Positions 128-29,083 of a DNA stretch of 35,646 nucleotides are shown piece after piece. The stretch lies in NCBI GenBank assembly GCA_964483015.1, contig CAZAAB010000002.1, positions 1-35,646 of the forward strand, in the 5' to 3' direction. Position numbers and translations under genes: made by a program. Under the pieces are notes generated by a model that worked only from the letters and a program-made list of their open reading frames with translations, was not told where the DNA came from and searched no databases. How positions within the stretch are numbered: position 1 is the stretch's first letter; every line of letters starts with the position of its first letter. Source of the stretch: Candidatus Woesearchaeota archaeon. Lineage in GTDB: Archaea > Nanobdellota > Nanobdellia > Pacearchaeales > GW2011-AR1.

Positions 128-454
128 ATGCCAATTAGAAACGGGATTGAAGAAATATCAGAAAATCATTTTCATGAAAAAATTGATAACCCATTAACTG
201 TTATAGATTTCTTTGCTGGATGGCATATGCCCTGCTTACTGATGGAGCCGGTTATTGAAGAGATGGCAGAAAAATTTGATATTATTAAATTTGCCAGAGT
301 AAATGTTGATGAGTGCAGCAAAATAACTGATAAGTTTAGTATTTCTAAATTCCCTACATTAGTCTTGTTTAAGAAGGGTGAGGAGATTGAGAGAATTCAA
401 GGACAACTGCCGGCAGAAGAATTAGAGGAAAAATTAAAAGGTTTTATTAAATAA
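128..454 (+). CDS. Thioredoxin-fold protein with a non-canonical WHMPC motif in place of WCGPC
   Basis: 108 aa with a typical Trx layout (VIDFFAGW-HMPC-..., KFARVNVDE, FPTLVLFKKGE). The first active-site Cys is replaced by His (codon cat, 224-226). Confidence 0.8.
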   Translation: MPIRNGIEEISENHFHEKIDNPLTVIDFFAGWHMPCLLMEPVIEEMAEKFDIIKFARVNVDECSKITDKFSISKFPTLVLFKKGEEIERIQGQLPAEELEEKLKGFIK

Positions 455-674
455 AAATGCAAGAAAGATTATATGATTGCAATAGGAAAGAGCATTATAG
501 ATTTGTTAGAATAAAGAAAGATATTATGAAGTTAAGTAACCTCATTATAGAGAGAATATATTTTGTATTCTAAAAACATTTTTAAACTCATTTTTTCTAT
601 CATTTTTAGCCCTTTACTAGAAAGATGGATAGTGATGAAGAGAAAAGAAAGATAAATTTGTAAAGAGGTTTTAA

Positions 675-827
675 GGACCCGTAGCTCAGTTGGTTAGAGC
701 ACTGGCCTTTTAAGTAGCCTTTTGAAAAGGCTACGGCCAAACCTATAAAACAAAAGGTTTTGATCAAACTTTTTCAAAAAGTTTGGGAGAAAGCCAGGTG
801 TCGGGGGTTCAAGTCCCTCCGGGTCCA
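675..827 (+). tRNA. tRNA-Lys (anticodon UUU) with a 79-nt intron at the canonical 37/38 position
   Basis: Acceptor GGACCCG/CGGGTCC and D arm GCTC-AGTTGGTTA-GAGC. Anticodon stem CTGGC (702-706)/GCCAG (793-797) with loop CTTTTA|A. T arm GGGGG-TTCAAGT-CCCTC, discriminator A, no encoded CCA. Confidence 0.9.
713..791 (+). other. tRNA-Lys intron (about 79 nt) built from three AU-rich hairpins
   Basis: This sequence separates the two halves of the anticodon arm. It contains the hairpins TAGCCTTTT/AAAAGGCTA, AAACC/GGTTT and CAAACTTTTT/AAAAAGTTTG. Exact splice borders are ambiguous by 1 nt because of the A-run. Confidence 0.7.
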
Positions 828-987
828 CTTAATCTAAAAAAAAGAAAATTTACCGAAAGGTTTAAAAACCTAATATTAATTTCATTTAGTATTGGTTAGT
901 TGTAATGGTAAATATGTGAAAATTTTTAATAAAAAATTAAATAAAAAAACCAAGCTTACTAAATAAATCCTGCTTATTTTAAAAAAA

Positions 988-1203
988 ATGCATATACTCC
1001 AGCCGAAACACACCAAATTAGATGAAGAAGAAACAAAAAAACTACTTGAAAAGTATAATATTTCTGTATCTCAACTGCCAAAAATAAAAAAAGAAGACCC
1101 TGCTTTGCCGGAAAATTGTAAAATAGGCGATGTAATCAAGATTGAGAGAGAAGAAAAGTCAGAAAAAAAAGGAGTGAAAAAATATTATAGGGTTGTAGTT
1201 TAA
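988..1203 (+). CDS. rpoH: RNA polymerase subunit H (Rpo5/Rpb5 C-terminal domain homologue)
   Basis: 71 aa with HxLxPKH...LLEKYNI...QLPKI...DP...GDVIKIxR...YYRVV. It sits directly upstream of rpoB, as in the archaeal rpo operon. Confidence 0.85.
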   Translation: MHILQPKHTKLDEEETKKLLEKYNISVSQLPKIKKEDPALPENCKIGDVIKIEREEKSEKKGVKKYYRVVV

Positions 1204-1209
1204 CAAACA

Positions 1210-4200
1210 ATGTCAGAAAAAGAAAAACAAGATGGTTATATGTTAGTAAAGAACTACTTGAAAGAACATTCTTTAGTTGAAAGTAATATTACTTCTTTTA
1301 ATAACTTTATTGAAGAAAAAATGCAGGAAATTGTTGAAGACCTTAATGAAAACCTGCCTGTAGAAGATTTTGAAATCAGCTTGGGAAAAATAAGGGTGGG
1401 AAAGCCAAATGTTATTGAGGCTGATGGTTCTACATCTTTAGTTACCCCAACAGAAGCAAGGTTAAGAAACCTGACCTATTCTGCGCCTGTTTATTTAGAA
1501 ATTGGAGTAAAAAGAGAGGGGCAGAATGAACAAGAAGAAGTTGAGATAGGGAGAATACCTGTTATGGTGGGAAGCAATATATGCAATAAAGCAAGTTTGA
1601 CAGAAGAAGAAAAACAAGAACATTTTATAGACCCAAAAGACCCTGGCGGATATTTTCTTTTAAATGGAAATGAAAGAGTAATGGTTTTAATGGAAGACCT
1701 TGCTGCAAACCAGCCATTTATTGAAGAAAAAAAAGGCAACTTAATGTTAAGATTATTCAGCCAAAGAGGAGCTTATAGAATCCCTATTTCTATAACTGAA
1801 ACTAAAGAAGGAATAATTGAGACCTCTTTTTCAAGATTTCAAGACATCCCAATAGTTGTCTTGCTAAAAGCTTTAGGTATGGAAAAAGATTCTGACATTG
1901 CAAAGTTTATAGGCAAAGAAACAGACAGTGTTATTGTTAACCTTTATGAATTTTCTGATATCAATTCTATTGAAGATGCTATGTTGTGGATGGCTGAAAA
2001 AGCTAACTTGCAGGGAACTAAAAAAGAAATTCTTGACAGGGTTAAACAAAGGATTGACAATTATTTTATGCCCCATATTGGAACTGAAGAAAAAAACAGG
2101 CAGGAAAAGGCAGTAACATTATGCAAGTTTGTAAAGCAGTTTATAATCGCTAAAGAAAATACTGATGTTTATACTGATAAAGACCATTATGCAAATAAAA
2201 GAGTAAAGCTTTCAGGAGACCTTCTTTCAGACTTATTCAGGGTAAACTTGAATATTCTAGTTAGAGATATTCAATACTCTTTATCTAAAACAATTAAGAG
2301 AAAAAAATATTATTCATTGAAAACAATTGCAAAGTCTACTTTATTTTCACATAGGGTTGAGTCCGCATTTGCAACTGGGAGCTGGATAGGCCAGAGAACA
2401 GGGGTTACTCAAAATATGGATAAGACTAACTACTTATCTATTCTTTCACAGTTACAAAGAGTTACTTCTGTCTTGCCTGGAGAAATTGCTAATTTTATGG
2501 CAAGAACTTTACATCCAACACATTATGGCAGGTTTTGCCCAATTGAAACACCTGAAGGTACTGAGATTGGCTTAAGAAAAAACCTTGCCTTGCTCGCAAG
2601 GGTTTCTACTGATATTCCTCTTAATGAAGAAGCATTTGTAAAAAAATTGCAAGAGCTTGGGATGGAGTTACATTCTTCAGAAAAACAAAAAGAGTTTGAT
2701 GTTTTTTTCAATGGCAGGTTTATAGGCAGTGTTGAAAAAGGCAGCGATTTTATGAAAAAAGTTGTTAACGAAAGAAGACAGAATAAGCTTCCTATTCAGC
2801 TTAACATCAGACTTGACAAGCTTGTAAAAACTATTTACATATCTACAGAAGTTGGCAGAGTTTTAAGACCTCTAATAATTGTTGAAAATGGAAAAAACAG
2901 GATGACTGAGGATTATAAAAACAAGGTAGAAAAGGGGGAGATTGGGTGGAAAGACTTGTTAGAAAAAGGAGTAATAGAGTATTTAGATGCGAGTGAAGAA
3001 GAAAATGCCTTAGTTGCAGTAAAAGAGGAAGACATAACTGAAAAACATACGCATGTTGAAATTGACCCTGTTGCTTCTTTAGGAACTATTACCTCTTTAG
3101 TGCCTTATGCTAATCATGACCACCCGCCAAGATTATTAAGAGGAAGCAAGACATTAAAACAAGGTTTAGGAATATATTCTGGAAATTTTCCTATAAGGGT
3201 TGACACAGATGTTTCAATTCTGCATTATCCTCAAAAGCCAATAGTAAAAAGCTTTGTTTATGACACATTAGACATGCACCCTGCAGGACAGAACATGGTT
3301 GTTGCTATAATGACATACGAGGGTTATAATCTTGAAGATGCAATAGTCATGAATAAGGGAAGTATTGACAGGGGCTTAGCAAGAAGCACTTATTTCAGGC
3401 CTTACTCAGCTATAGAGTTAAAATATGCAGGAAACTTAAAAGACGAGATTACAGTTCCTGAAAAAGATGTTTCAGGCTATAAAACAGAGGAATCTTATAA
3501 ATATTTAGAAGATGACGGTTTAGTTTATCCAGAAGCTAAATTAGATGAAGGTGAGGTAGTTATTGGCAAGACAAGCCCCCCTAAGTTTCTTTCAGAAGCA
3601 AGAAATATAGCTATACGAACAAGAAAAGAGACAAGCGAGGTTATAAGACAGGAAGAAAAAGGGATTGTTGATGCTGTTTTTCTTACTACAGATAGAGAGG
3701 GGAATAAGGTTTCTCATGCAAGGACAAGAGACCCAAGAATTCCGGAGTTAGGAGACAAATTTTCAAATCCTCACGGCCAGAAGGGTGTTGTAGGGTTAAT
3801 AGTCCCTGAACAAGACATTCCTTTTACTTCAAGAGGCATCAAACCAGACTTAATATTTAATCCTCATGGAATCCCAAGCAGAATGAGTATGGGCTACTTA
3901 ATCGAGTTATTAGCCGGGAAAATGGGAAGTATAGCTGGAAGAGCTGTTGACGGGACACCTTTTGCTGGTGAAAAAGTTGAAGATATAGAGAAAAATATGA
4001 GAAAAATGGGGTTTAGATACGATGGTAAAGAAACAATGTTTGACCCTATAACCGGCAAACAGATGAAAGCTAAGATTTTTATTGGCAGTATGTATTACTT
4101 AAAACTTAAGTATATGGTAAGTAATAAAATACATGCAAGGGCTTCTGGAAAAGTTCAACTATTAACAAGACAGCCGATTGAGGGCAGGGCTAAAGGCGGG

Positions 4201-4485
4201 GCATTAAGACTAGGAGAAATGGAGCAACAAGCATTAGTTGCTCACGGCTCTTCATTGTTATTAAAAGAAAGATATGATTCTGATAAGGTTGTTGTTCATG
4301 TTTGTAAGGATTGCGGGAGTTTAGCTATTGAAGATAAGATGAAAAATAAGATTAAATGTCCATTTTGTAAGAACTCAGAATCAGAACCTATAGAAATATC
4401 TTACGCATTTAAGTTATTGCTTGAAGAATTGCAGGGAATGCATATTTATAGTAATTTTGAACTGAAAAATAAATATGAAGAGTAG
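1210..4485 (+). CDS. rpoB: RNA polymerase subunit B, unsplit
   Basis: 1091 aa with conserved Rpo2 blocks (GYFLLNGNERV, NHDHPPR, GDKFSNPHGQKGV, LRLGEMEQQAL) and a C-terminal Zn ribbon CKDCG...CPFC. Confidence 0.97.
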   Translation: MSEKEKQDGYMLVKNYLKEHSLVESNITSFNNFIEEKMQEIVEDLNENLPVEDFEISLGKIRVGKPNVIEADGSTSLVTPTEARLRNLTYSAPVYLEIGVKREGQNEQEEVEIGRIPVMVGSNICNKASLTEEEKQEHFIDPKDPGGYFLLNGNERVMVLMEDLAANQPFIEEKKGNLMLRLFSQRGAYRIPISITETKEGIIETSFSRFQDIPIVVLLKALGMEKDSDIAKFIGKETDSVIVNLYEFSDINSIEDAMLWMAEKANLQGTKKEILDRVKQRIDNYFMPHIGTEEKNRQEKAVTLCKFVKQFIIAKENTDVYTDKDHYANKRVKLSGDLLSDLFRVNLNILVRDIQYSLSKTIKRKKYYSLKTIAKSTLFSHRVESAFATGSWIGQRTGVTQNMDKTNYLSILSQLQRVTSVLPGEIANFMARTLHPTHYGRFCPIETPEGTEIGLRKNLALLARVSTDIPLNEEAFVKKLQELGMELHSSEKQKEFDVFFNGRFIGSVEKGSDFMKKVVNERRQNKLPIQLNIRLDKLVKTIYISTEVGRVLRPLIIVENGKNRMTEDYKNKVEKGEIGWKDLLEKGVIEYLDASEEENALVAVKEEDITEKHTHVEIDPVASLGTITSLVPYANHDHPPRLLRGSKTLKQGLGIYSGNFPIRVDTDVSILHYPQKPIVKSFVYDTLDMHPAGQNMVVAIMTYEGYNLEDAIVMNKGSIDRGLARSTYFRPYSAIELKYAGNLKDEITVPEKDVSGYKTEESYKYLEDDGLVYPEAKLDEGEVVIGKTSPPKFLSEARNIAIRTRKETSEVIRQEEKGIVDAVFLTTDREGNKVSHARTRDPRIPELGDKFSNPHGQKGVVGLIVPEQDIPFTSRGIKPDLIFNPHGIPSRMSMGYLIELLAGKMGSIAGRAVDGTPFAGEKVEDIEKNMRKMGFRYDGKETMFDPITGKQMKAKIFIGSMYYLKLKYMVSNKIHARASGKVQLLTRQPIEGRAKGGALRLGEMEQQALVAHGSSLLLKERYDSDKVVVHVCKDCGSLAIEDKMKNKIKCPFCKNSESEPIEISYAFKLLLEELQGMHIYSNFELKNKYEE

Positions 4486-4510
4486 CCTTTCAAAAAGGCT
4501 ACGGCCAAAC
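4481..4510 (+). repeat. 30-nt hairpin-plus-tail element, 28/30 identical to positions 713-742 of the tRNA-Lys intron
   Basis: AGTAGCCTTTCAAAAAGGCTACGGCCAAAC versus AGTAGCCTTTTGAAAAGGCTACGGCCAAAC. It overlaps the rpoB TAG stop (4483-4485). Confidence 0.85.
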
Positions 4511-4529
4511 ATGGAGAAAGGATAAGAAA

Positions 4530-7500
4530 ATGCAAAAAGGAATAAGAAAACAAGTCAGGGCATTGTCTTTTAGCTTGCTTAGTCCTGACAAGATAAAAGA
4601 TTTGTCAGCAGCAAAAATAGTCACACCCGAATTATACGATGTAGACGGCTATCCAGTAGATGGGGGTTTAATGGACTTAAGAATGGGTGTTATAGAACCT
4701 GGAATGAGGTGCAGGACTTGTGGAGGTACATTAAAGGAGTGTGTTGGCCACCCAGGGTCTATTGAAATGGCAAGACCAGTTATTCATGTCAAGTATGCTA
4801 AATTAATCAAAATGCTTCTTCGTTCTTTTTGTGAAAAGTGTGGAAGATTCTTGCTAGACCAGGGCGAATTAAAAAGATATATGAAAAAATCTCTGAAAAA
4901 GAGAATAAAAAAGGCAAGAGACACAAAAAAATGCCCTTACTGTAATGCTGAGCAGGGTAAAATAAAGTTAGAGAATCCTACAACTTTTAGGATTGGCAAA
5001 AAAAGACTTTTCCCAAATGAGATTAGGGAAAGACTTACATTAATACCAGATGACCAGTTAAGACTTGTAGGGATTAATCCTAAACATACAAGACCTGAGT
5101 GGGCAATCATTTCTCTACTAATAGTTCCACCTGTTACTGTAAGACCTTCAATTACTCTTGAGTCAGGAGAAAGAAGTGAAGATGATTTAACACATAAGTT
5201 AGGAGATATTATAAGGGCAAACCAAAGATTATGGGAAAACTTAAATGCTGGTGCTCCTGAAGTTATTGTTGAAGACTTATGGGACTTGCTTCAATATCAT
5301 GTTACAACCTTTTTTGACAATACTATTTCAAGAATCCCTCCTGCAAGACATAGGTCTGGACAGCCGTTAAAAACAATTACAGAAAGAATAAAAGGCAAGG
5401 AAGGAAGAATCAGGCATAATCTTACTGGTAAAAGAGTTAATTTTTCTTCAAGAAGTGTTATTTCTCCAGATCCTTATCTTAAAATAAATGAGGTTGGTGT
5501 CCCTTTAGAGATTGCAAAAGTTTTAACTGTTGCTGAAAAAGTAACTTCCTTAAATATTGAAAAAATGAAAGAGATTGTAAAAAAGGGAAGTGATTATCCT
5601 GGAGCTAACTATATAGTGAGGCCAGACGGGAAGAGGAAAAAAATAACACCTGAATTAAAAGAGGAAGTTCTTGAAGAGTTGCAGGTTGGGTATTTAGTTG
5701 AAAGACACCTGAAAGATGGAGATATAGTGTTATTTAACAGGCACCCTTCTTTACATAAGCAGAGTATTATGGGGCATATTGTTAAAGTTTTGCCCTCAAA
5801 AACATTTAGATTGCATCCATCTGTCTGTCATCCTTATAATGCTGATTTTGATGGGGATGAGATGAATGTTCATGCTCCCCAGACTGAAGAAGCAAGAAGT
5901 GAGACAAAAACTCTTTTAAATGTAAATGAAAACCTGATTAGCAGTAAAAATAATACTAATTTGCTGGGATGTATTCAAGACCCAATAACTGGCAATTTTT
6001 TGGCAAGTAAAGAAAAAATAAAGGCAAGAGATGCAGAGCAGTTGCTTTTTCAGGCAGGTATTGAAACTGAGATAAAAAAAGACATTGATGGAAGGGAAAT
6101 TTTTTCATCTATTCTTCCTAAAATTGATTTTGAAAATAAAAAAGTTAAGATAGAAAAGGGTAAGGTTGAGAAAGGAGTTATTGATGAAAATACTTTTGGT
6201 GTTGAAGAAGGAGAGTTGTTAAGAAAATTAGATAAAGATTTTGGCAGGGAAAAAAGCCTTGATGTTTTGAAAAAAGCCTTCACACTGGGAACAAATTATA
6301 TTTCTAGAAGAGGTTTTTCTCTTTCCTTAAATGACCTCACAGTAAATGAAAAGACAAAACAGGAAACAGAAAAAATAATTAAAAAAGCTGAAGAAGAAAC
6401 AAGCAAGATAATAGATTCTTATAAAAAAGGCAAGTTAGACTTAATTCCTGGCAGAAGTCTTGAAGAGAGCAGGGAGATAAAGATTCTTCAAACATTAAAC
6501 CATATCAGGACAGAGGTGGGTAAGGTAGTTAGGCAAGAGTTAAAGAGGAATAACCCTGTTAATATTATGATTATTTCTGGTGCAAGGGGCAATGTATTAA
6601 ATATAACTCAAAGCTCTTGTAATGTCGGGCAGCAGGCGTTGTGGGCAAGAAGGATTAATATTGGCTACACAAATAGAACCTTATCTTTTTTTGAGGAAAA
6701 TGACCTGTCTCCAGAGTCAAGAGGATTTATAAGAAACAGTTATTTAGAAGGTTTAGAGCCTCATGAATTTTTCTTTGGTTCAATGACTGGAAGAGACAGT
6801 TTAATGGATACTGCTTTAAGAACACCTAAGTCTGGTTATTTATACAGAAGACTTGCAAATGCTTTACAAGACTTAAAAATTGAGTATGATAAAACATTAA
6901 GAGATGCTTCTCAGAATATTGTCCAGTTTAAGTATGGTGAAGATGGCAAAGATGTTTCTGCTCTTCATAAAGATGGAGAAATACCTGCTGGAGAAGCTGC
7001 AGGAATTGTTTCTGCACAGTCTTTTGGCGAGCCTTCAACACAAATGGCATTAAGAACATTTCACCTTGCTGGTGTGCAAGAAATGCAGATTACACAGGGC
7101 TTGTCAAGACTGATTGAAATATTTGATGCGAGAAAAACCCCTTCAACCCCATTAATGGAGGTTTATCTTGATACAGAACATAACAATCAAAAAGATGCTA
7201 AAGAAGTTGCTGAAAAAATTAAAGAAGTTAAGTTAAAAGAAATAGCTTCTTCTTTTAAGATTAATTTTTCAGATAAAAGAATAGAAATTAATACAGATAG
7301 CAAGGCAGTTAGGTCAACACATACTACATTAAAGAAAATAATTGAAAAATTAAACAGTAAAAAAGGTATAGATGTGAAAAAGAAAGGCAGTTCTATCTAC
7401 AGTAAAGATAAAGATCTTGACTTTAAACAGCTTTACAAGTTAAAAGAAAAGTTAAAAGAATCTATTGTTTCAGGGATTAAGGGTATTGATCAGGTTTTAG

Positions 7501-7997
7501 TTGTTAAAAGAGAGAGGTATTATGTAATACTGACTTCTGGTTCTAACTTGAAGAAAGTTTTAAAAGTTGAGGGGGTAAGCCAGGAAAAAACAGTTACTAA
7601 TGATCTTTATGAAGTTGCTGATGTATTAGGTATTGAAGCAGCAAGACAGTTGATAATTAATGAGGTTAAGAAAGTTTTAAATCAGCAGGGTCTTGATATT
7701 GATCACAGGCATATTGTCCTGGTTGCTGATGCTATGACTTATAAAGGAAATGTTAAAGGAATTACAAGAATGGGTATTATTAGTGAAAAGTCTTCTGTTT
7801 TGGCAAGGTCTGCTTTTGAAACACCAATAAGACAGTTTATTAACGCGAGCATTCGGGGCGGGAAAGATGAGCTTGCTTCTGTTATTGAAAATATAATTCT
7901 AAATCAGCCCGTACCTGTTGGGACCGGCTTGCCGGGCTTGCAAGTTGAAGTGACAGGACCTTTAACTAAGAAAAAAGCTAAGAAAAAAAAGAAATAA
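4530..7997 (+). CDS. rpoA: RNA polymerase subunit A, with A' and A'' regions in a single ORF
   Basis: 1155 aa. N-terminal Zn motifs are present (CRTCGG...C.GH). The catalytic NADFDGDEMN and A'-type block FFFGSMTGRDSLMDTALRT are followed in frame by A''-type blocks (GEAAGIVSAQSFGEPSTQMALRTFHLAG, ARSAFE). Confidence 0.95.
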   Translation: MQKGIRKQVRALSFSLLSPDKIKDLSAAKIVTPELYDVDGYPVDGGLMDLRMGVIEPGMRCRTCGGTLKECVGHPGSIEMARPVIHVKYAKLIKMLLRSFCEKCGRFLLDQGELKRYMKKSLKKRIKKARDTKKCPYCNAEQGKIKLENPTTFRIGKKRLFPNEIRERLTLIPDDQLRLVGINPKHTRPEWAIISLLIVPPVTVRPSITLESGERSEDDLTHKLGDIIRANQRLWENLNAGAPEVIVEDLWDLLQYHVTTFFDNTISRIPPARHRSGQPLKTITERIKGKEGRIRHNLTGKRVNFSSRSVISPDPYLKINEVGVPLEIAKVLTVAEKVTSLNIEKMKEIVKKGSDYPGANYIVRPDGKRKKITPELKEEVLEELQVGYLVERHLKDGDIVLFNRHPSLHKQSIMGHIVKVLPSKTFRLHPSVCHPYNADFDGDEMNVHAPQTEEARSETKTLLNVNENLISSKNNTNLLGCIQDPITGNFLASKEKIKARDAEQLLFQAGIETEIKKDIDGREIFSSILPKIDFENKKVKIEKGKVEKGVIDENTFGVEEGELLRKLDKDFGREKSLDVLKKAFTLGTNYISRRGFSLSLNDLTVNEKTKQETEKIIKKAEEETSKIIDSYKKGKLDLIPGRSLEESREIKILQTLNHIRTEVGKVVRQELKRNNPVNIMIISGARGNVLNITQSSCNVGQQALWARRINIGYTNRTLSFFEENDLSPESRGFIRNSYLEGLEPHEFFFGSMTGRDSLMDTALRTPKSGYLYRRLANALQDLKIEYDKTLRDASQNIVQFKYGEDGKDVSALHKDGEIPAGEAAGIVSAQSFGEPSTQMALRTFHLAGVQEMQITQGLSRLIEIFDARKTPSTPLMEVYLDTEHNNQKDAKEVAEKIKEVKLKEIASSFKINFSDKRIEINTDSKAVRSTHTTLKKIIEKLNSKKGIDVKKKGSSIYSKDKDLDFKQLYKLKEKLKESIVSGIKGIDQVLVVKRERYYVILTSGSNLKKVLKVEGVSQEKTVTNDLYEVADVLGIEAARQLIINEVKKVLNQQGLDIDHRHIVLVADAMTYKGNVKGITRMGIISEKSSVLARSAFETPIRQFINASIRGGKDELASVIENIILNQPVPVGTGLPGLQVEVTGPLTKKKAKKKKK

Positions 7998-7998
7998 G

Positions 7999-8427
7999 AT
8001 GAATCAGACAATAGATATGAACCATATAAGGTACTTGAACTTATTTGAGAAGGTTACTAAAGTTAGGACTAAACATTGTTTTAAGTACAATGATTTTTTA
8101 GTTTTTGCTGTTCCTGTTAAGCTTGTTTCTAAGGCAATAGGTGAAAAAGGCAAGAATGTTAAAAAATTAAGCAGGATTTTAAACAAGAAGATAAAGATTG
8201 TTCCCTTGCCAAAAAATAACAGTGAAGAAGAAACAAAAAACTTTATAGTCCAGATTATTAAACCCTTAGGTTTTAAAAATATGAAAATTGATGAAAAAAA
8301 CAGCAAAATACAGATTAAAGCTGGCAGACAAAACAAAGCTGCCTTGATTGGCAGGGGTAGGCAGAGAGAAAAAGAACTGAATGAAATTGCAAGAAGTTTT
8401 TTTAGTAAAGAGATTGAGATTATTTAA
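7999..8427 (+). CDS. nusA: Archaeal NusA-like KH-domain protein
   Basis: 142 aa with KH-like GxxGxN motifs (AIGEKGKNVKKL, LIGRGRQ). It lies between rpoA and rps12, the conserved operon position. Confidence 0.8.
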   Translation: MNQTIDMNHIRYLNLFEKVTKVRTKHCFKYNDFLVFAVPVKLVSKAIGEKGKNVKKLSRILNKKIKIVPLPKNNSEEETKNFIVQIIKPLGFKNMKIDEKNSKIQIKAGRQNKAALIGRGRQREKELNEIARSFFSKEIEII

Positions 8428-8467: not shown

Positions 8468-8890
8468 ATGGGATTGATGAATGCGAGAAAATTAGAAAAG
8501 AAAAGGCAGAAGTTTAGATGGAAGAATAGAAAATATAGAGCTAGAAAGCTAAACTTGAAAGAAAAATCTGACCCTTTAGAAGGAAAACCGCAAGCTAAAG
8601 CTTTAGTAATTGAAAAAGTTCAGAGAGAGGCAAAACAGCCAAACTCAGCTATGAGAAAAGCAGCAAGGGTACAGTTAATGAAAAATGGCAAAAGCACTAC
8701 TGCATTTATACCTGGTAATGAAGCTGAAAAGTTTATCAATGAGCATGATGAGGTTACTATAGAAAGAATAGGCGGGAAGCAGGGTGGCAGCAAGGGTGAT
8801 ATTCCTGGAATTAAGTTTCAAGTTATTAAAGTTAATGGTCAGCCTTTGAAAAGATTAGTAGAAGGTAAGATTGAAAAAGGTAGAAGGTAA
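8468..8890 (+). CDS. rps12: 30S ribosomal protein uS12
   Basis: 140 aa with [23 protein letters not shown]...DEV.IE..GG..G...GDIPG. Confidence 0.95.
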
Positions 8891-8891
8891 A

Positions 8892-9119
8892 ATGGGGACA
8901 ATAAACCGGTTAATAAGATTAGTAACTAGACAAACTGAAATAGACCCTTATGTCGTTGGGCAACATGAAGAAGCAGCAGTCAGATTAAGAGATTCTGAAG
9001 ATTCAGAAAATCTAGAAAAAGCTTTGATAAAATTAGCAAGAAAAGGCAGAAGTTATTTGGTTGAATATAAAAGTACTAAAAGCGGGCAGATTTACGCACA
9101 TTTAAGGAGAACAAGATGA
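8892..9119 (+). CDS. Orphan 75-aa protein inserted between rps12 and rps7
   Basis: The ATG at 8892 lies 1 nt after the rps12 stop. The track's 8871 start is a TTG inside rps12. The stop overlaps the rps7 ATG (ATGA at 9116-9119). No family recognised. Confidence 0.5.
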   Translation: MGTINRLIRLVTRQTEIDPYVVGQHEEAAVRLRDSEDSENLEKALIKLARKGRSYLVEYKSTKSGQIYAHLRRTR

Positions 9120-9703
9120 AAATTTTTAATAAGTATGAAACTAAAGATGTTAAAGTGAAAGACCCGGGATTGAAAAAATATATTAACCTAAAAGAAAAGC
9201 TGGTTTTGAAAAGTCATGGGAGAAATACTGATAAATTTTCTGAAGCAGATGTCAGTATTATTGAAAGACTTGTTAACTTGTTATGTGTTCCTGGGCATAG
9301 AGGCAAGAAACAGAAAATCCAGACTAGGTGGGCAACTGGCAAGAAAAATAAAAACATTAAAGTTGTTTTAAAAGCATTAGAAATTATAAAAGAAAAAGCT
9401 GGAAAAAACCCTGTCCAGGTTTTAGTAAATGCTATTGAAAATGCCTCTCCTAAAGATGAGACAACAACTATTGAGTATGGCGGGGCTCGTTATCCTCAAG
9501 CTGTTGATACCTCTCCAGTAAGAAGGGTTAACTTGGCTTTAAGAAATATTGTGCACGCTGCCTATGACAAAACATTTAACAGTAGGGGGAATTTAGAAAA
9601 AGCCCTGGCTGATGAAATTTTGGCTGCTTCTAACAATAATAATGAAAGTAAGGCCATAAAAAAGAAGACAGAGATGGAAAAGCAGGCTGATTCTGCTCGG
9701 TGA
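9116..9703 (+). CDS. rps7: 30S ribosomal protein uS7
   Basis: 195 aa with the archaeal S7 pattern (LVN.L...GH.GKK, TIEYGGARYPQAVDTSP.RR..LALR.I). Confidence 0.95.
   Translation: MKIFNKYETKDVKVKDPGLKKYINLKEKLVLKSHGRNTDKFSEADVSIIERLVNLLCVPGHRGKKQKIQTRWATGKKNKNIKVVLKALEIIKEKAGKNPVQVLVNAIENASPKDETTTIEYGGARYPQAVDTSPVRRVNLALRNIVHAAYDKTFNSRGNLEKALADEILAASNNNNESKAIKKKTEMEKQADSAR
9691..9703 (+). repeat. Direct repeat copy 1 (TTCTGCTCGGTGA), the last codons of rps7
   Basis: An exact 13-mer that recurs at 10169-10181. Confidence 0.9.
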
Positions 9704-9716
9704 TAGTAATTTTAAA

Positions 9717-10166
9717 ATGGTAAATTTTATAAAGTGTTCTTTAATTAGTGTTGATATGGCAACCGATAATAAATCAAAGCCATTTAGAGGACTCCCTAGT
9801 ATTAGACGAGAAGTAAGTCCCGAGTATGATGGTCCCTATAGAGACTTTCTTGTGGAGAGATATAAAGAACTGGAAGAGGTTAAAGAAGATTTTCTTAACA
9901 TGCGCAGAAGAGCTTGCAGAGACGAAATTTCATCTGAAGAAGTGAGAAAGACAGGGGGGGAATTATGGGTAAAAATTGGGGAATTAGATGACCAGGTTTC
10001 ATCAGAACTTAATCTTTCAGATGTATCTTATGGAGATCCAGAATGGCCATCTATGTTTGAATTACTCTCTTTTCATAAAAGTACAAGTTTTTTAAGAGCC
10101 TATTTATTCTGGTGTTTTTTAGGTTCTAATGAAATGGATTATTATATAAGACAGGCGAAGGAATAG
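9717..10166 (+). CDS. Orphan protein (149 aa as drawn; 136 aa from the ATG at 9756)
   Basis: A long ORF in an AT-rich genome, with more Arg/Glu/Trp and fewer Lys/Ile/Asn than its neighbours. No family recognised. Flanked by the 13-bp direct repeat. Confidence 0.55.
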   Translation: MVNFIKCSLISVDMATDNKSKPFRGLPSIRREVSPEYDGPYRDFLVERYKELEEVKEDFLNMRRRACRDEISSEEVRKTGGELWVKIGELDDQVSSELNLSDVSYGDPEWPSMFELLSFHKSTSFLRAYLFWCFLGSNEMDYYIRQAKE

Positions 10167-10168
10167 GC

Positions 10169-10181
10169 TTCTGCTCGGTGA
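10169..10181 (+). repeat. Direct repeat copy 2 (TTCTGCTCGGTGA)
   Basis: An exact copy of the rps7 3' end. It reads ASAR-stop in frame directly after the TAG of the orphan ORF. Confidence 0.9.
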
Positions 10182-10243
10182 GGATTCTTAAGTATATTTT
10201 CAACCATAATAATATTTTTAAACTATCTTAACTCTAACCAAAT

Positions 10244-10819
10244 ATGCCAAACAGAAAGCAAAAAAGAGAAAAGGAAATATTTAGAATAAAACAAGAGATG
10301 TTAGATAGGTTAAAAGAGGCAGGAACAAAAGCAATAATAAGTATAAATTCTTTTGGGTTTCCTGAAGTTGATTTTCCAAGTTTAGAAGAGCTGGCTGAAG
10401 AATTTGCTGAAAAAAATAACTTATCATTAACAGATATGACTGATTATCATTTTCCAGTTGTTGCCCCTCTAAATGAGCCAAGAACTTATGATTCTGGGTT
10501 AATTTTACAGTTTAAAGAAGGGGTTAGTGTTTTGTCTATAAAAGGAAACTGGGAAGATGAGGGCAGATTAGAACCTACATATGGTGGAAGGCCAATACAA
10601 TACTGGTCAAAAGCATATGTAATGAGCGGGCTTGTAAAGGGGGAAGATGCTGAACTGGGAGCAAGAATATCTTATTCAAGACCAACAAGGCGGGAAGAGA
10701 GAACCAACACTTTAGGACGTACCCTGCTTGTAGATGTTCCTTTTGGAGAAGCAAGAAAAAGAATACATAGATATGATAATTCTTCTTTATGGTTTTTAAA
10801 AGAGCAAGATAGAGAATAA
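10244..10819 (+). CDS. Orphan 191-aa protein between rps7 and EF-2
   Basis: An uninterrupted ORF with a TTTTTAAA box about 30 nt upstream. No family recognised. Confidence 0.6.
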   Translation: MPNRKQKREKEIFRIKQEMLDRLKEAGTKAIISINSFGFPEVDFPSLEELAEEFAEKNNLSLTDMTDYHFPVVAPLNEPRTYDSGLILQFKEGVSVLSIKGNWEDEGRLEPTYGGRPIQYWSKAYVMSGLVKGEDAELGARISYSRPTRREERTNTLGRTLLVDVPFGEARKRIHRYDNSSLWFLKEQDRE

Positions 10820-10886: not shown

Positions 10887-13800
10887 ATGGCAGATAAGAC
10901 AACAGAAAAAGTAAAAAAATTGCAACATAAGCCAGAACAAATAAGGAATATAGCAATTGCTGCACATATAGATCACGGGAAGTGTATAGCACCTGAATCT
11001 CGGATTATGTTAGATGGAAATTTAGTTAAAGCTAAGGATTTATTTGAAACTGCTAAGAAAAAAGGCGAAAAAGTTTTTGAAGAGGATAACAAAATAATTT
11101 ATGATACTTCAAAACTTGATATTAAAACTTTTTCTTTAAATAAAAAAAATAAAAAATTAGAAAAAAGAAAAATAAGTCATGCATGGAAACTAAAGGGGGG
11201 CAATGTAATTAAATTAAAATTAAGAAATGGATTCCAAATTAAAACAACCCCGGAACACAAATACATTGTTTTTGAAAATTTTGATTTTAAAGAAAAGCAA
11301 GCTAAAAACTTAAAAATAGGTGACAGAGTTATATGCCCCAGAGAAATTGAAATTGATAAACAAATAAATATCAAAAGTTATATCTTGAAGAAATTGCAAA
11401 AGGAAAACTTCTATGTATTTTTAAATGAGGTTTTTGGAAATAAGTTAAAAAATTTAATTTTGGACTATGGGATAAGAAAAATAAACAAACAACTTGACTC
11501 TGACATAAAGTATAATTCTATATATCATGGTTTCTGGAAGAATAGATATCAAATTAAAGACCTAATTAAAATATCCCATATTTTTAATTTTAAATTAGAA
11601 AATATTTATAACGAGATTGACTTTATCTGTTATAGAACCGGAAAATGGAGAGATAAAAGCTCTCTACAAGTAAAGTTGCCAAAAACTCCTCGGCAATTTG
11701 AAAAGTTTTTTTATCTCTCTGGATTAATGTTTGGAGATGGTTCTGGGAAAAAATTTGTTGTAGGAAAAAAAGAACTTGGCAATATTTTTGAAAAAATTTG
11801 TGATGAATTTAATATAAGAGTCACTCACAGAGATTATGGTTACAGAACTAAAGAACTTATGACCAGTGAAACTTTATCAAGAATTTTAAAATGTGTTCTT
11901 GAATATCCTCTAAAAGATAAAAGTAGAAACATTAAAATCAGCAGTGTTTTATGGAAAATTGATAAGAGATATGTCAGCCAATTTATAAAAGGATATTTTG
12001 ATACTGATGGATGTGTAGAAAAATCTAGGAGAGCTATATCTTTAAGTTCTGCCAGTAAGAAAATGTTAAAAGGATTATCTTTACTTTTATTAAGAATAGG
12101 AATAGTCCCTAATTTACAAAAAAATAATATTTTTATATCTGGTCACTCCGCTAAAAGATTTCAGCAAGAAATTGGTTTTAATGTAAAAGATAAAACTGAG
12201 AAATTAGAGGATTTAGTCAAAAGAATTAGAGCTAGTTTAGTTATGGATTATGTTTTAGTTAATGGGAAAAGGGTCTCTAAAACAAGTGGGGGATTAAGTT
12301 TGCAACAAGAAAAACAGGTTTTACTTAGCAATTTACTTGAACAATTTGCATTTGTTGAAGTAAAAAAATTAGAGCAAGATGTAGAAGAGGAAGTTTATGA
12401 TTTTTCTGTTCCTAAGACAAGGAATTTTGTTTCTGAAGGCATTATTATTCACAACACCACATTTTCTGACAACTTACTGGCTGGAGCTGGAATGATGTCT
12501 GAAGAATTGGCAGGAAAACAATTAGTTATGGATTTTCATGATGATGAAAAAGAGAGAGGCATTACAATAGACTCTGCTAACGTGAGTATGGTTCATGATT
12601 TTGAAGGTAAAGATTATTTAATTAACTTAATAGATACCCCGGGGCATGTTGATTTTGGTGGTGATGTGACAAGAGCAATGAGAGCAGTTGATGGCAGTAT
12701 AGTTTTAGTATGTGCTTCAGAAGGTGTCATGCCTCAAACTGAAACAGTATTAAGGCAGGCATTAAGAGAAAGGGTAAAACCTATATTATTTATCAATAAG
12801 GTTGATAGGTTGATTAGGGAAGTTAAGCTGACTCCAGAACAGATGCAGAAAAGATTTAAGAAAATCATAAATCAGGTTAATGAACTTATACATAATATTG
12901 CTCCTAAAGAGTATAAAGATAAATGGCTTGTAAATGTTCAAGATGGTTCAGTAGCATTTGGTTCTGCTTTTCACAACTGGGCATTGTCTATACCATTTAT
13001 GAAAAAAAATAAAATAACTTTTAGTGATATTATTGAAGCATATAAGGCGGGGGGTGAAAAATATAAAGAGCTGGCAAAAAAAGCACCCTTGCATAGGGTT
13101 GTTCTAAATATGGTTACAAAGCACTTGCCAGACCCAAAACAAGCCCAACCATACAGGATTCCAAAAATCTGGCACGGGGATTTAGATTCAAAGCAGGGAA
13201 AATCCTTAACTGGATGTGATGAAAATGGGAAACCAGGTTTTATTTCAACTAAAATTGTTGTTGATAAGCATGCTGGCGAAGTAGCTGCAGGCAGGTTATT
13301 TTCAGGAACATTAAAACAGGGAGATGAAGTTTATATGAATCTTGCTAAAAGAAAAGTTAAACTGCAGCAAGTTTTCGTCTATAATGGGGCTAAGAAAATA
13401 CAGGTTGACAGTGTTGTTGCAGGCAATATTGTGGGTTTATCTGGATTGACTGATGTTCGGGCCGGGGAAACTGTTTCAGAAGAAAAAGTGACTCCTTTTG
13501 AAGAAATTAAACATATTTTTGAACCAGTAGTTACTAAAAGTATTGAAGCTAAAAAACCCTCTGACCTTCCTAATTTAATTGATATTTTAAGAACTGTAAA
13601 TAAAGAAGACCCTTCAATTCATATTGAGATAAATGAAGATACAGGAGAAAATTTAATATCAGGAATGGGAGAATTGCATTTAGAGGTTATTGAAAACAGG
13701 ATTAGAAGCGAGAAAGGTTTAGATGTTAAAACAGGACAGCCAATTGTTGTTTATAATGAAACTGTTACAAAAGAATCAAGAGAGTTTGACGGGAGAAGCC

Positions 13801-14528
13801 CGAACAAGCACAATATTTTTACAATAAAGGTTGAACCATTAGAAGAAAATATTTATAATGCTATTAAAGAGGGGGAGATATCAGAGGGGAGGATAAAGAA
13901 AAAAGACAAGCAGTTAAGCGAAAAATTAAGAGAAATAGATGTTGATAGAGATGAAGTCAGACAGTATCGTGATATTTATAAAGGAAATGTTTTCTTAGAC
14001 ACAACAAGAGGAGAGGTTTATATGGAAGAAGTTATTGAGTTAATTCTTGATGCTTTTGAACAAGTTGTTGATCAAGGGCCATTAGCAAGAGAGCCTTGTT
14101 CAAGATTAAAGGTAAGTTTAACTGATGTTAAGTTGCATGAAGATGCTATTCACAGGGGGCCTGCACAAGTATATCCTGCTGTGAGAAATGCTATACATGC
14201 AGCAATGAACGATGCCAAAGCTGTATTGTTTGAGCCTGTACAAATTCATAGAGTTGAAGCACCTTTAAAATATCTTTCAAATCTTACTAATCTAATTTCA
14301 AGCAAAAGAGGCGAATTGTTAGAGGTTAATCAGGAACAAACTGCAGTTATTAAAGCTAAAATACCTGTAGCAGAGATGATTGGCTGGTCAAGTGACTTAA
14401 GGTCAGCTACTGAAGGGAGAGGGGTTTCATCATTGATGGACCAGAAATTTGAAAAAGCACCTGCAGACCAACAGCAAGAGATTATTAAAAAGATTAGAGA
14501 CAGAAAAGGTTTAGAAGAAAATCAGTAG
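10887..14528 (+). CDS. fusA: Translation elongation factor 2 (aEF-2) precursor containing an intein
   Basis: The extein reads AHIDHGK|TTFSDNLLAGAG, DTPGHVDF, NKVDR, and EDAIHRGPAQ (diphthamide His region). It is 722 aa once the intein is removed. Confidence 0.95.
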   Translation: MADKTTEKVKKLQHKPEQIRNIAIAAHIDHGKCIAPESRIMLDGNLVKAKDLFETAKKKGEKVFEEDNKIIYDTSKLDIKTFSLNKKNKKLEKRKISHAWKLKGGNVIKLKLRNGFQIKTTPEHKYIVFENFDFKEKQAKNLKIGDRVICPREIEIDKQINIKSYILKKLQKENFYVFLNEVFGNKLKNLILDYGIRKINKQLDSDIKYNSIYHGFWKNRYQIKDLIKISHIFNFKLENIYNEIDFICYRTGKWRDKSSLQVKLPKTPRQFEKFFYLSGLMFGDGSGKKFVVGKKELGNIFEKICDEFNIRVTHRDYGYRTKELMTSETLSRILKCVLEYPLKDKSRNIKISSVLWKIDKRYVSQFIKGYFDTDGCVEKSRRAISLSSASKKMLKGLSLLLLRIGIVPNLQKNNIFISGHSAKRFQQEIGFNVKDKTEKLEDLVKRIRASLVMDYVLVNGKRVSKTSGGLSLQQEKQVLLSNLLEQFAFVEVKKLEQDVEEEVYDFSVPKTRNFVSEGIIIHNTTFSDNLLAGAGMMSEELAGKQLVMDFHDDEKERGITIDSANVSMVHDFEGKDYLINLIDTPGHVDFGGDVTRAMRAVDGSIVLVCASEGVMPQTETVLRQALRERVKPILFINKVDRLIREVKLTPEQMQKRFKKIINQVNELIHNIAPKEYKDKWLVNVQDGSVAFGSAFHNWALSIPFMKKNKITFSDIIEAYKAGGEKYKELAKKAPLHRVVLNMVTKHLPDPKQAQPYRIPKIWHGDLDSKQGKSLTGCDENGKPGFISTKIVVDKHAGEVAAGRLFSGTLKQGDEVYMNLAKRKVKLQQVFVYNGAKKIQVDSVVAGNIVGLSGLTDVRAGETVSEEKVTPFEEIKHIFEPVVTKSIEAKKPSDLPNLIDILRTVNKEDPSIHIEINEDTGENLISGMGELHLEVIENRIRSEKGLDVKTGQPIVVYNETVTKESREFDGRSPNKHNIFTIKVEPLEENIYNAIKEGEISEGRIKKKDKQLSEKLREIDVDRDEVRQYRDIYKGNVFLDTTRGEVYMEEVIELILDAFEQVVDQGPLAREPCSRLKVSLTDVKLHEDAIHRGPAQVYPAVRNAIHAAMNDAKAVLFEPVQIHRVEAPLKYLSNLTNLISSKRGELLEVNQEQTAVIKAKIPVAEMIGWSSDLRSATEGRGVSSLMDQKFEKAPADQQQEIIKKIRDRKGLEENQ
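10983..12455 (+). mobile_element. 491-aa intein with a LAGLIDADG homing-endonuclease domain in the EF-2 P-loop
   Basis: It starts with Cys (CIAPES) straight after GK and ends in HN followed by Thr. It has a TxxH block (TTPEH) and two LAGLIDADG motifs (LSGLMFGDGSG, IKGYFDTDGCV). By eye it is more AT-rich than the extein. Confidence 0.9.
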
Positions 14529-14582: not shown

Positions 14583-14903
14583 ATGAGGTTTAAAAATTTT
14601 AGGAGAATATTAGAATTTTTCATCATAGGTCTTGTCTTCGGCATTACTGAAGACATCCTTGCTGTTTTAATTGCTACTGATGCTGAATTTTCCTGGAACA
14701 TTGTCTGGATAGTGGCTTTAATTGCACTGCCCTTTGCAATAGTAAGTGAGCTTGTTGTTGATAGAATTCATTTTGATAAAATTAGGAGATGGTGGAATAA
14801 AGAGATGGATAAAGGATTAAAAACAGTTGACAAGAGTTTGAAAAATGCAAACAAGGTTGCTAATAGTTTAGGCAAGGTAAAAAAAGAAAAGGGAAAAGGG
14901 TAA
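14583..14903 (+). CDS. Small membrane protein (two predicted TM helices, basic C-terminus)
   Basis: 106 aa with hydrophobic stretches FFIIGLVFGI and IVWIVALIALPFAIV. It is inserted between EF-2 and EF-1alpha. Confidence 0.55.
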   Translation: MRFKNFRRILEFFIIGLVFGITEDILAVLIATDAEFSWNIVWIVALIALPFAIVSELVVDRIHFDKIRRWWNKEMDKGLKTVDKSLKNANKVANSLGKVKKEKGKG

Positions 14904-16278: not shown

Positions 16279-16803
16279 ATGGAAAGAACACATCTAATTC
16301 AGAGGCTGAAGAAGCCAAGAGGATCTGCAATTGCTTTTTCTTTTGGGGGAGGACTGCCTGCCGGAGGATTTTCTAAAGAAGCTCAAGAATTATTGAAAAA
16401 TGTCTGTACTTTTGATTATATGGGCTCTGCTGAATTTGAGTTTGGAGAAGTTCCAAGAGCTTTCTACAGAATAGCTGAATATTCTTCTAATAGAGAAGCT
16501 TCTTCAGGAGAGCTTTGCTTCCCAGATGAAGTATATTATATATGCGAAAAAGGGATTGAAAGAGAGGTAAAAGGAGTAATAGCACAACTAGTTAGAAATG
16601 AAGAAGAGTTACGGCTTAAGGAACCTTGTTATTTATGGGAAAGCATAACAGGAGAACCTGAATGGGCTTCAGACTATGTTGGATGGGTAGAATTAGATAA
16701 TGCTTTTATGTTTTTTACTGACAGAGAAATGTTCAACAAATTCCAAAATTTGTTTAGTATCAATTCTTCACAATCGCAAAAAACAAATCGTGAGGAAGCT
16801 TAA
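16279..16803 (+). CDS. Orphan 174-aa protein in the slot usually held by rps10
   Basis: An uninterrupted ORF with no recognised family. It is preceded by an 8-codon mini-ORF (16251-16277) with a strong GAGGTGAT Shine-Dalgarno sequence. Confidence 0.6.
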   Translation: MERTHLIQRLKKPRGSAIAFSFGGGLPAGGFSKEAQELLKNVCTFDYMGSAEFEFGEVPRAFYRIAEYSSNREASSGELCFPDEVYYICEKGIEREVKGVIAQLVRNEEELRLKEPCYLWESITGEPEWASDYVGWVELDNAFMFFTDREMFNKFQNLFSINSSQSQKTNREEA

Positions 16804-28883: not shown

Positions 28884-29083
28884 AAAACCCGTTTAAATTG
28901 CTTGGGAGCTATGTTGGTTTATTCCTTGGTTTAATAGCAAGTTATTTTTCTTTTGCTATTGTCTTAAGTTTAGCTGAGTCGGGCAAGTTTATATTAATCG
29001 CTTTATTGATCCCATTTATCCCGATAATTCTGGGCTTTTTGCTTGGCTGGTTAATACATTTATTGATTTTAAAGTTAAAATGA
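28880..29083 (+). CDS. Small two-TM membrane protein (67 aa)
   Basis: Two hydrophobic helices. Its stop overlaps the ATG of the HAD gene (ATGA). Confidence 0.45.
   Translation: MKNPFKLLGSYVGLFLGLIASYFSFAIVLSLAESGKFILIALLIPFIPIILGFLLGWLIHLLILKLK

Follow-up and report, generated by a model that had tools for sequence, protein, structure and literature searches.

A 35,646-nt contig of a DPANN archaeon (32% G+C), analyzed here over its whole length and referred to as the window, carries a displaced copy of the last 13 nt of rps7, the gene for archaeal ribosomal protein S7. An event at the rps7 stop codon duplicated these 13 nt. The second copy, which we call a ghost tail, stands at the position that the rps7 end holds in relatives with the ancestral gene order, and events of this type recur at the ends of rps7 and of the aEF-2 gene (fusA) in related archaea. 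We consider it very probable that the locus is the scar of an insertion or recombination event and that the ghost is the old rps7 end. In sequence comparisons, the second copy appears to be the former end of the rps7 gene of this very lineage, still at its ancestral position, and the 465 nt between the two copies (9704-10168, forward strand), which carry a single orphan open reading frame (ORF), ORF149, appear to be inserted DNA. The best explanation that we can offer for the locus as a whole combines the ghost tail, the added 465 nt, and a recombination of the type known as homology-facilitated illegitimate recombination (HFIR), and we give this combined account an even chance of being right.

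The 13-mer TTCTGCTCGGTGA occurs exactly twice in the window, at 9691-9703, where it forms the real tail of rps7 (codons S-A-R-stop, including the TGA), and at 10169-10181, both on the forward strand; no third copy was found in the window with 2 mismatches allowed. An earlier first-pass annotation of this DNA had reported the exact recurrence and had placed the second copy 2 nt past the stop codon of ORF149 and in frame with it. Both observations hold: the TAG of ORF149 (10164-10166) is followed by GC and then by the 13-mer, giving the frame TAG GCT TCT GCT CGG TGA. The degenerate similarity that had also been proposed upstream of the two copies (AAGCAGGCTGA versus AGACAGGCGAA) does not stand up, as it amounts to 7 of 11 positions at a shifted register, is not recovered by local alignment, and is not significant. 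A gapped alternative, which pairs CAGGCT[GAT]TCTGCTCGGTGA with TAGGCT, a 3-nt gap, and TCTGCTCGGTGA, is just as likely as the shifted-register match and would extend the ghost back to 10164, in which case the ORF149 stop codon may be a mutated Gln codon of the ghost tail. Given the 3-nt gap, the right junction shares AGGCT/T with the real tail, and the same pattern fits a longer, mutated ghost. The rps7 gene itself ends in three in-frame stop codons in series (TGA TAG TAA, 9701-9709), the second and third of which belong to the inserted segment.

The comparison set consisted of 230 related loci (designated by L numbers) with ~158 distinct rps7 genes. Three of these loci keep what appears to be the original arrangement: in L230, L156, and L012, the rps7 stop codon is followed by a short spacer (54, 47, and 57 nt, respectively) that contains a TATA-like box and then by a homolog of ORF191, a lineage-restricted protein of unknown function encoded at 10244-10819 on the forward strand of the window. 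The homologs, each directly behind rps7, are 56% (L012), 55% (L230/P0123), and 48% (L156) identical to ORF191, which shows no Pfam, PHROG, NCBIfam, or PADLOC family. ORF149 is absent from all three. The ghost in the window lies 62 nt ahead of ORF191, the place held by the real rps7 stop in these relatives. The spacer that follows it (10182-10243, forward strand, with the promoter-like TTTTTAAA at 10215-10222) aligns with the spacer after the real L230 stop with a global score of 11 (shuffled sequences, -0.7 +/- 3.6; p 0.003), and the 62 nt after the real rps7 stop of the window show no similarity to the L230 spacer (p 0.86). The spacer of the window also resembles the promoter region of rps12 (77% over 31 nt). 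Thus, the empty sites and the spacer homology bear out the core of the first-pass reading, in which a one-ORF module of ~480 bp was inserted at the rps7 end with duplication of the target. That annotation had called for a search for empty sites, which turned up in L230, L156, and L012, and had named as a counterargument relatives that lack ORF149 but have the duplicate; none was seen, those relatives having one tail.

The origin of the ghost can be narrowed further. Among 157 distinct rps7 tails, a CGG Arg codon is found in 3 and a TGA stop in 5, and the two are combined only in the window, so that the ghost must come from the rps7 of this lineage or from a nearly identical one. From base composition, TTCTGCTCGGTGA is expected 2e-6 times within 600 nt, and it is the only 13-mer pair of the contig within 600 nt that has at least 7 G+C; in Markov-2 shuffles, a comparable GC-rich pair arises in 3% of the windows. 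For the 13-mer to fall within ~10 nt of the expected ancestral stop, the expectation is ~20 positions x 3.6e-9, or ~7e-8 (order 1e-7). It is its position relative to ORF191, the rare tail variant, and the recurrence of such tails in relatives that appear to place the repeat beyond chance.

The inserted segment shows no DNA similarity to the rest of the window or to any of the 230 related loci (2.2 Mb), and no terminal inverted repeats pair its ends. Its composition is host-like, with a G+C content at third codon positions (GC3) of 0.25, and at this composition an open frame of 150 codons has a chance probability of ~2e-6. ORF149 (9717-10166, forward strand) can be read as 149 aa from the ATG at 9717 or as 136 aa from the ATG at 9756. 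A TATA-like box read from the sequence, TTTATAAA (9726-9733, forward strand), lies 22 nt upstream of the second ATG, and the corresponding distances are 21 nt from TTTTTAAA to the ATG of ORF191 and 24 nt for rps12; this suggests a leaderless 136-aa protein expressed from a promoter of its own. No homolog of ORF149 was detected in a search of 5.8e9 clusters or by exhaustive phmmer against 1.84e9 representatives, and no Pfam, PHROG, NCBIfam, or PADLOC family was assigned, the only hits being noise (GrpE, E 0.23; ZorC, E 0.019). Residues 8-43 gave weak tblastn matches to a conserved gene located upstream in many loci (E 7-18); these are neither significant nor independent. The AlphaFold2 (AF2) single-sequence model is mostly helical, with a helical hairpin at residues 40-97 and a pLDDT of 52.5. 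The remote-homology and structure checks proposed in the first-pass annotation for the 136-149-aa protein therefore gave no homolog and a low-confidence helical model, and its proposal to look for further copies gave no third 13-mer in the window, no ORF149 homolog, and no DNA likeness to the segment in the 230 loci. Its report that no transposase, integrase, or terminal inverted repeat is visible was borne out for the insert ends and for the scanned ORFs of the window: no integrase, transposase, Cas1, or PolB was found among the ORFs of at least 100 aa scanned with Pfam, a set that did not include two large ORFs at 1210-7997. Nor is there a recombinase among the top 25 Pfam/PHROG families listed for 149 ORFs downstream of rps7 in the relatives.

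The scar is not unique: ghost tails recur at the ends of rps7 and aEF-2, with lengths of 4-33 nt and often with synonymous differences. A scan downstream of rps7 for the tail peptide ...QADSAR-stop with at most 1 mismatch gave 7 forward matches and 0 reverse-strand matches in 472 kb. At least six other lineages of Pacearchaeota/Woesearchaeota have rps7 ghosts on the same strand, at distances from the real tail of 26 nt (L028, an exact 22-nt duplication across the rps7 stop), 73 nt (L073), 84 nt (L009), 1054 nt (L027), and 1187 nt (L013), as well as 488 and 1446 nt for the two ghosts of L150. Ghosts of aEF-2 (..GLxENQ-stop) are found in L111 (=L185), L118 (=L192), L119 (=L193), and L203, from 38 to 1091 nt past the real stop, and ghost tails of rps12 in none of 140 genes. 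When the scan was extended to all genes (663 distinct ORFs of at least 150 aa), it returned 10 forward and 0 reverse matches; listed by gene, these were six S7, three EF-2, and two others. Readable ghosts are present in ~4% (rps7) and ~5% (aEF-2) of the lineages. In 65 loci with 10-kb flanks, no rps7 ghost was seen beyond 1.5 kb, and no intact larger element was found.

Another case is L160, where the ghost KKEIVEGTNK-stop lies ~55 nt past the stop codon of a 1165-aa ORF (198-3695), probably an RNA polymerase subunit gene, that ends in KKEIVEKTNK-stop; ghosts are therefore not strictly limited to rps7 and aEF-2.

The ghosts span 4-11 codons, the DNA upstream of them is unrelated to S7, and the cargo is different at every locus. 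Thus, L027 carries a 298-aa gene on the opposite strand, and L013 carries two orphan ORFs, one of them continuing through the ghost tail without a change of frame. L150 (=L215) has two successive ghost-bounded, toxin-antitoxin (TA)-like cassettes at 5588-7034, one with a 58-aa ORF and a ParE toxin and the other with a PBECR2 nuclease and a DUF2283 protein, and aEF-2 is no longer adjacent. The inserts of L028, L073, L009, L118, and L119 are only 4-66 nt long and contain no gene. Because ORFs may run into ghosts in this way, the C termini predicted for ORF149 and for ORF211 of L013 may be chimeric, which calls for caution in annotation.

The sequences of the ghosts point to their source. Of the 27 nt compared between the real and ghost tails of L073, 10 differ, with 0 amino acid changes (for example, Ser TCA versus AGT and Arg AGA versus CGT), and differences of the same synonymous type are found in L013, L150, and L027 and, in large number, in the aEF-2 ghost of L119. 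A local duplicate that decays neutrally cannot yield changes that are synonymous only; such tails must therefore have accumulated their differences as parts of functional genes in separate lineages before recombination united them. In agreement with this, the L027 ghost shares its last 12 nt exactly with the real tail of its relative L050, and the real tail of L027 matches that of L039, a relative 96% identical in rps7. In L039, a further module (ORF125) is placed exactly at the rps7 stop, with only ATAA repeated. L027 (4085-5115) and L039 (1964-2997) also share a module of ~1.03 kb that carries the 298-aa reverse-strand gene and has identical boundaries in the two loci, with different neighbors on both sides; from this arrangement, it appears to behave as a discrete unit. 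Taken together, the recurrence of ghosts, their variable length, and their synonymous changes seem to fit recombination between lineages better than a transposase-type duplication.

The slot in which these events occur is itself variable in this clade. The first-pass annotation had counted the rps7-fusA junction among the most conserved known, and this does not hold here: the gap has a median of 531 nt and is 200 nt or less in only 30 of the 98 loci that have aEF-2 downstream of rps7, and in the window ORF191 is a second extra gene in it. Within the nearest clade (EF-2 75-80% identical), the two genes are adjacent in L003, L086, and L092, and each of L087, L017, and L156 has a different extra ORF between them. 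Variation is just as great between rps12 and rps7, which are >200 nt apart in 76 of 140 loci. Since the same type of scar recurs in related lineages, the rps7 end would seem to be a preferred entry point for new DNA.

As to the mechanism, we lean, tentatively, toward HFIR, for which we would not claim even a balance of probability. DNA from a closely related cell, in which ORF149 was located directly behind rps7, would have recombined with the chromosome, with the conserved rps7 serving as the left homologous anchor. As the homology does not reach past the stop codon, the incoming DNA would have been joined illegitimately at its right end, via microhomology or a template switch, and this join would have fallen a few codons ahead of the recipient's own rps7 stop. 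The product would consist of an intact rps7 with its full tail, the cargo, the last 13 nt of the recipient gene as a ghost, and the original downstream DNA of the recipient; no mobile-element enzyme would be required. Repeated in lineage after lineage, such events would fill the rps7 and aEF-2 slots with unrelated orphan genes and TA pairs. The HFIR model would account for new DNA that always starts at the end of the homology, for ghosts of 4-33 nt, for tiny inserts, synonymous tail differences, and ORFs that sometimes run into ghosts, and for the failure to find a recombinase, inverted repeat, or cassette-end motif. In the window, the insert begins exactly at the stop codon, where rps7 homology ends, as do the ORF125 module of L039 and the module of L027. 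In the window and in L013 alike, the cargo ORF continues in frame into the ghost, which is what a join that cut through a donor ORF would leave behind. The process has been documented in naturally transformable bacteria, according to the studies cited in PMC6382021.

Several observations weigh against this account, some against the insertion itself and some against HFIR. The empty sites are family-level ones: the S7 proteins of L230, L156, and L012 are 62-65% identical to that of the window, and no relative is above ~70%. The direction of the event can be read in two ways that both fit, ORF149 having moved in, or a block of ghost plus ORF191 having moved in behind a resident ORF149, and ORF191 is itself patchily distributed; a mosaic test based on the identity ranks of S12, S7, and EF-2 among relatives gave no sign of a separate origin for ORF191-fusA versus rps7. 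Local matches with a score of at least 13 between a 588-nt segment and the next 540 nt occur at 39.5% of random placements in the contig. Given this empirical null, the 13-mer alone proves nothing, and its meaning has to come from the other evidence; the first-pass argument that it is very unlikely by chance was sound with respect to base composition (2e-6) but overstated. The two copies in the window are identical, so that att-like cassette integration (see below) and a simple target duplication both fit this locus as well as HFIR does. ORF149 has no homolog in the collections searched, and no donor sequence with ORF149 behind rps7 is known. Ghosts are enriched at rps7 and aEF-2 and absent from rps12 despite its equally variable slot, and generic recombination predicts no such preference. 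To our knowledge, HFIR has not been documented in archaea. Experimental demonstrations of it are confined to naturally transformable bacteria, and it usually deletes recipient DNA and leaves no short duplication.

Read support is uneven as well. The sequence is present in only one public run, a microbial-mat metagenome, in which Logan contigs cover 9300-9772, 9787-10058, and 10174-10700 at depths of 4.1, 4.6, and 3.9. The read-level check proposed in the first-pass annotation thus succeeded for the left junction, which is spanned by an independent contig (9300-9772), and not for the right one, as 10059-10173 is uncovered in this sole run at ~4x and one contig starts at 10174, inside the ghost; this, too, counts against the proposed scar. 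Reads that join ...CAGGCTGATTCTGCTCGGTGA straight to GGATTCTTAAG would be the signature of an empty-site strain.

A close rival to HFIR-type recombination, although on balance we regard it as unlikely, is the integration of an att-like cassette. Here, the last 13-30 nt of rps7 or aEF-2 would serve as an attachment (att) site at which a small circular DNA carrying ORF149 and a short sequence that matches the site was inserted by a single Campbell-type crossover, catalyzed by a recombinase encoded elsewhere or by host recombination; the real tail would be attL and the ghost attR, and reuse of the site would build arrays of single-gene cassettes. Short direct repeats at the 3'-distal end of a protein gene are the known signature of archaeal integrated elements (PMC6563490), and a site-preferring enzyme predicts a gene preference such as that seen between rps7 and aEF-2, which have ghosts, and rps12, which has none. 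The two successive TA-like cassettes of L150, the identical boundaries of the 298-aa module in L027 and L039, and the promoter-like TATA box carried by ORF149 itself agree with a cassette as well. However, no integrase, Cas1, or transposase was found among the scanned ORFs of the 35.6-kb window or seen beside any ghost, and the restriction of ghosts to within 1.5 kb of rps7 in the loci with 10-kb flanks means that no larger intact element was found. The length of the repeat is inconstant, and the inserts of five events, at 4-66 nt, are too short for cassettes. No conserved motif was found at the cassette ends of the relatives, and the junctions show no attC-like hairpin (fold z, -0.58 for 10090-10200 and +0.64 for 9660-9770). 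Two degenerate patterns for an rps7-tail mimic had 0 matches in IMG/VR, and no second copy of ORF149 was found anywhere searched. Finally, in L009 the real tail seemingly precedes a native-type spacer and the ghost precedes a foreign gene, the opposite of the Campbell prediction, although the comparison of L009 with L015 for the native copy gave an ambiguous outcome.

Much less likely is a transposase- or casposase-type event, in which cuts staggered by 13 nt at the rps7 stop would have been repaired by fill-in, giving a true target duplication around a small nonautonomous transposon. The identity of the two copies (13/13) suits such an event, and casposons make duplications of 14-15 bp and target the 3' ends of genes, including EF-2. 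Against it, no terminal inverted repeats bridge 9704 and 10168, the scanned ORFs include no transposase or Cas1, and the insert is single copy without DNA similarity elsewhere. Moreover, the ghosts of the relatives differ synonymously from the real tails and vary in length, which a fill-in duplication cannot produce.

The possibility that ORF149 is nothing more than a gene specific to this lineage, located between rps7 and ORF191, and that the downstream 13-mer is a coincidence seems to us slightly more remote still. It draws on the 39.5% of placements with matches of comparable score and on the lack of significant similarity beyond the 13 nt. However, the word is GC rich and has the low compositional expectation given above, it reproduces the exact end of the gene with its rare combination of CGG and TGA, and it falls within ~10 nt of the position of the relatives' rps7 stop relative to ORF191 (~7e-8); in addition, such tails recur in relatives with zero control matches.

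An assembly artefact, with the contig chimeric or misjoined at the repeat, is highly improbable. The gap in coverage at 10059-10173, the contig start within the ghost, and the depth of ~4x leave room for it, but a 13-nt repeat is far below assembler k-mer sizes, the depth is even over the three pieces, loose ends and alternative joints are absent, a contig spans the left junction, and analogous ghosts are present in independent JGI, ENA, and NCBI assemblies. Scarcely credible, finally, is the idea that a 478-nt 3' part of rps7 was duplicated in tandem and then diverged, which would make ORF149 a decayed S7 copy: ORF149 does share the frame of the ghost tail, and L028 has a true 22-nt tandem duplication across the rps7 stop, but the S7 profile aligned by hhalign with ORF149 read through to the ghost gives a probability of 0.14%, 9704-10168 has no DNA similarity to rps7 beyond the 13-mer, and an intact 450-nt ORF is unexpected in a decayed copy.

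The genes around the scar are those of a str operon context on an ordinary chromosome. Upstream of rps7 (9116-9703, forward strand), which is intact and encodes 195 aa (Pfam PF00177, E 2.2e-36, residues 21-195), are the genes for a NusA-like KH protein (7999-8427) and rps12 (8468-8890), followed by ORF82 (8892-9119), a small orphan in the rps12-rps7 slot. Of 4643 S7 homologs found in the search, the closest outside matches are at most 70% identical and are labeled Pacearchaeota/Woesearchaeota/Nanoarchaeota. The aEF-2 gene (10887-14528, forward strand; Pfam GTP_EFTU, EFG_III/IV/C, Intein_splicing, and LAGLIDADG_3) has a LAGLIDADG intein in its P-loop. The remaining contig encodes EF-1alpha, a Toprim protein, SMC with a second intein, RNase HII, glycolytic enzymes, and one tRNA.

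Some features of the window stand apart from the scar. ORF82 has one homolog (51% identical), which occupies the same slot in L003 (935-1147); the other relatives have unrelated ORFs there or none. Positions 8487-8514 in the 5' part of rps12 (codons 7-16) match 9028-9054 in the 3' part of ORF82, in a different frame, over 26 of 27 nt with one 1-nt indel. This repeat, AAAATTAG(A)AAGAAAAGGCAGAAGTT, has a 17-nt exact core and is the longest close repeat in the contig (empirical p ~0.003); it may be another recombination scar, but its geometry is unlike that of a simple insertion. Two LAGLIDADG-type inteins in essential genes are encoded on this one 35-kb contig, at 10983-12455 (aEF-2) and within 22254-26705 (SMC, reverse strand), and homologous EF-2 inteins are found in only ~6 related loci. 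In L012, a 37-nt insertion (~3099-3135), which is not a multiple of three, interrupts aEF-2 at the P-loop, between the codons for AAHID and HGKTT, and adjoins the site at which the intein of the window is inserted; an mRNA intron, a scar of intein loss, and an assembly error are all conceivable, and the record includes runs of N. The adjacent ORFs 29080-29469 and 29484-29921, in different frames, match profile positions 2-83 and 102-245 of one pyrimidine 5'-nucleotidase (UMPH-1) family and represent either a frameshifted gene or a low-depth sequencing error. Two more orphan ORFs without a Pfam or PADLOC family, 14583-14903 (106 aa) and 16279-16803 (174 aa), are located in the slot between aEF-2 and EF-1alpha and in the slot after EF-1alpha, respectively, as further examples of the variable fillers seen between conserved translation genes.

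The genomes of DPANN archaea are tiny and rich in orphan genes, and the ways in which these archaea gain genes are poorly understood. The locus described here offers a dated, base-resolved gene addition inside a core translation operon that left rps7 unharmed. Few places in these genomes vary as much as the slots behind rps7 and aEF-2, and the several ghosts that derive from a different rps7 allele are direct sequence evidence of recombination between diverged lineages. Ghost tails are easily searched for and could serve to trace gene flow, to put dates on insertions, and to seek the responsible enzyme, if there is one. A bolder reading, which we consider improbable but worth stating, is that the coding ends of rps7 and aEF-2 are dedicated landing pads in Pacearchaeota/Woesearchaeota at which a site-preferring system, acting in trans or belonging to the host, stacks small promoter-bearing cassettes. 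If so, orphan-gene and TA cassettes would accumulate behind highly expressed essential genes with ghosts as separators, an integron-like capture of genes in the str operon without an integron integrase or attC, and this could feed the stock of lineage-specific orphans of DPANN archaea.

As far as the literature searched shows, the recurrent ghost-tail pattern has not been described previously; what is already known is that DNA can insert at the 3' ends of conserved protein genes and leave a short direct repeat there as its mark. A close precedent is found in Thaumarchaeota, where 14 of 68 integrated elements enter the 3'-distal ends of protein genes, with att sites down to 13 bp, a preference for EF-2, and tandem reuse of sites (PMC6563490). 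The same elements share with the window a short direct repeat of which one copy is the end of a conserved gene that stays intact, and their sites were likewise validated against empty sites in relatives (PMC6563490). However, they are kilobases long and encode an integrase or a casposase. The present insert measures 465 nt and contains a single orphan ORF but no recombinase; its target is rps7 and its host a DPANN archaeon, and the repeats of related events range over 4-33 nt. Casposons, Cas1-dependent self-synthesizing transposons, prefer the 3' ends of aEF-2 or tRNA genes, aEF-2 being the favorite target of thaumarchaeal casposons, and their 14-15-bp duplications are close to the 13 bp seen here. 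In contrast, the related events vary from 4 to 33 nt and show synonymous differences that are incompatible with fill-in duplication, and neither Cas1 or PolB (in the scanned ORFs) nor terminal inverted repeats were found in the window. Insertion sequence (IS) elements and miniature inverted-repeat transposable elements (MITEs) are recognized by terminal inverted repeats and multiple copies, and the insert has neither.

In HFIR (de Vries & Wackernagel 2002; Prudhomme 2002; Meier & Wackernagel 2003, as cited in PMC6382021), foreign DNA is taken in by way of one homologous anchor and an illegitimate join at a microhomology of a few bases, taken here as 3-10 nt. It shares with the events proposed here the independence from any mobile-element enzyme and a cargo that consists of the donor DNA adjoining the anchor. 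Integron cassette arrays, including those of archaeal integrons (PMC9668308), resemble L150 in that small single-gene or TA cassettes are lined up behind a fixed site with short sequences as separators. They differ in that the sequence repeated here is the coding end of an essential gene and that no IntI (in the scanned ORFs), attC hairpin, or attI was found. The 3'-end duplications of tRNA genes made by integrative elements and genomic islands differ in turn from the present case, in which the target is protein coding, the inserts are tiny, and there are no integrase remnants. Nevertheless, they offer a parallel in form, as a displaced partial 3' end marks the far border of the insert in both, and tRNA-gene islands, too, form arrays in which decayed islands are separated by fragments of the target gene.

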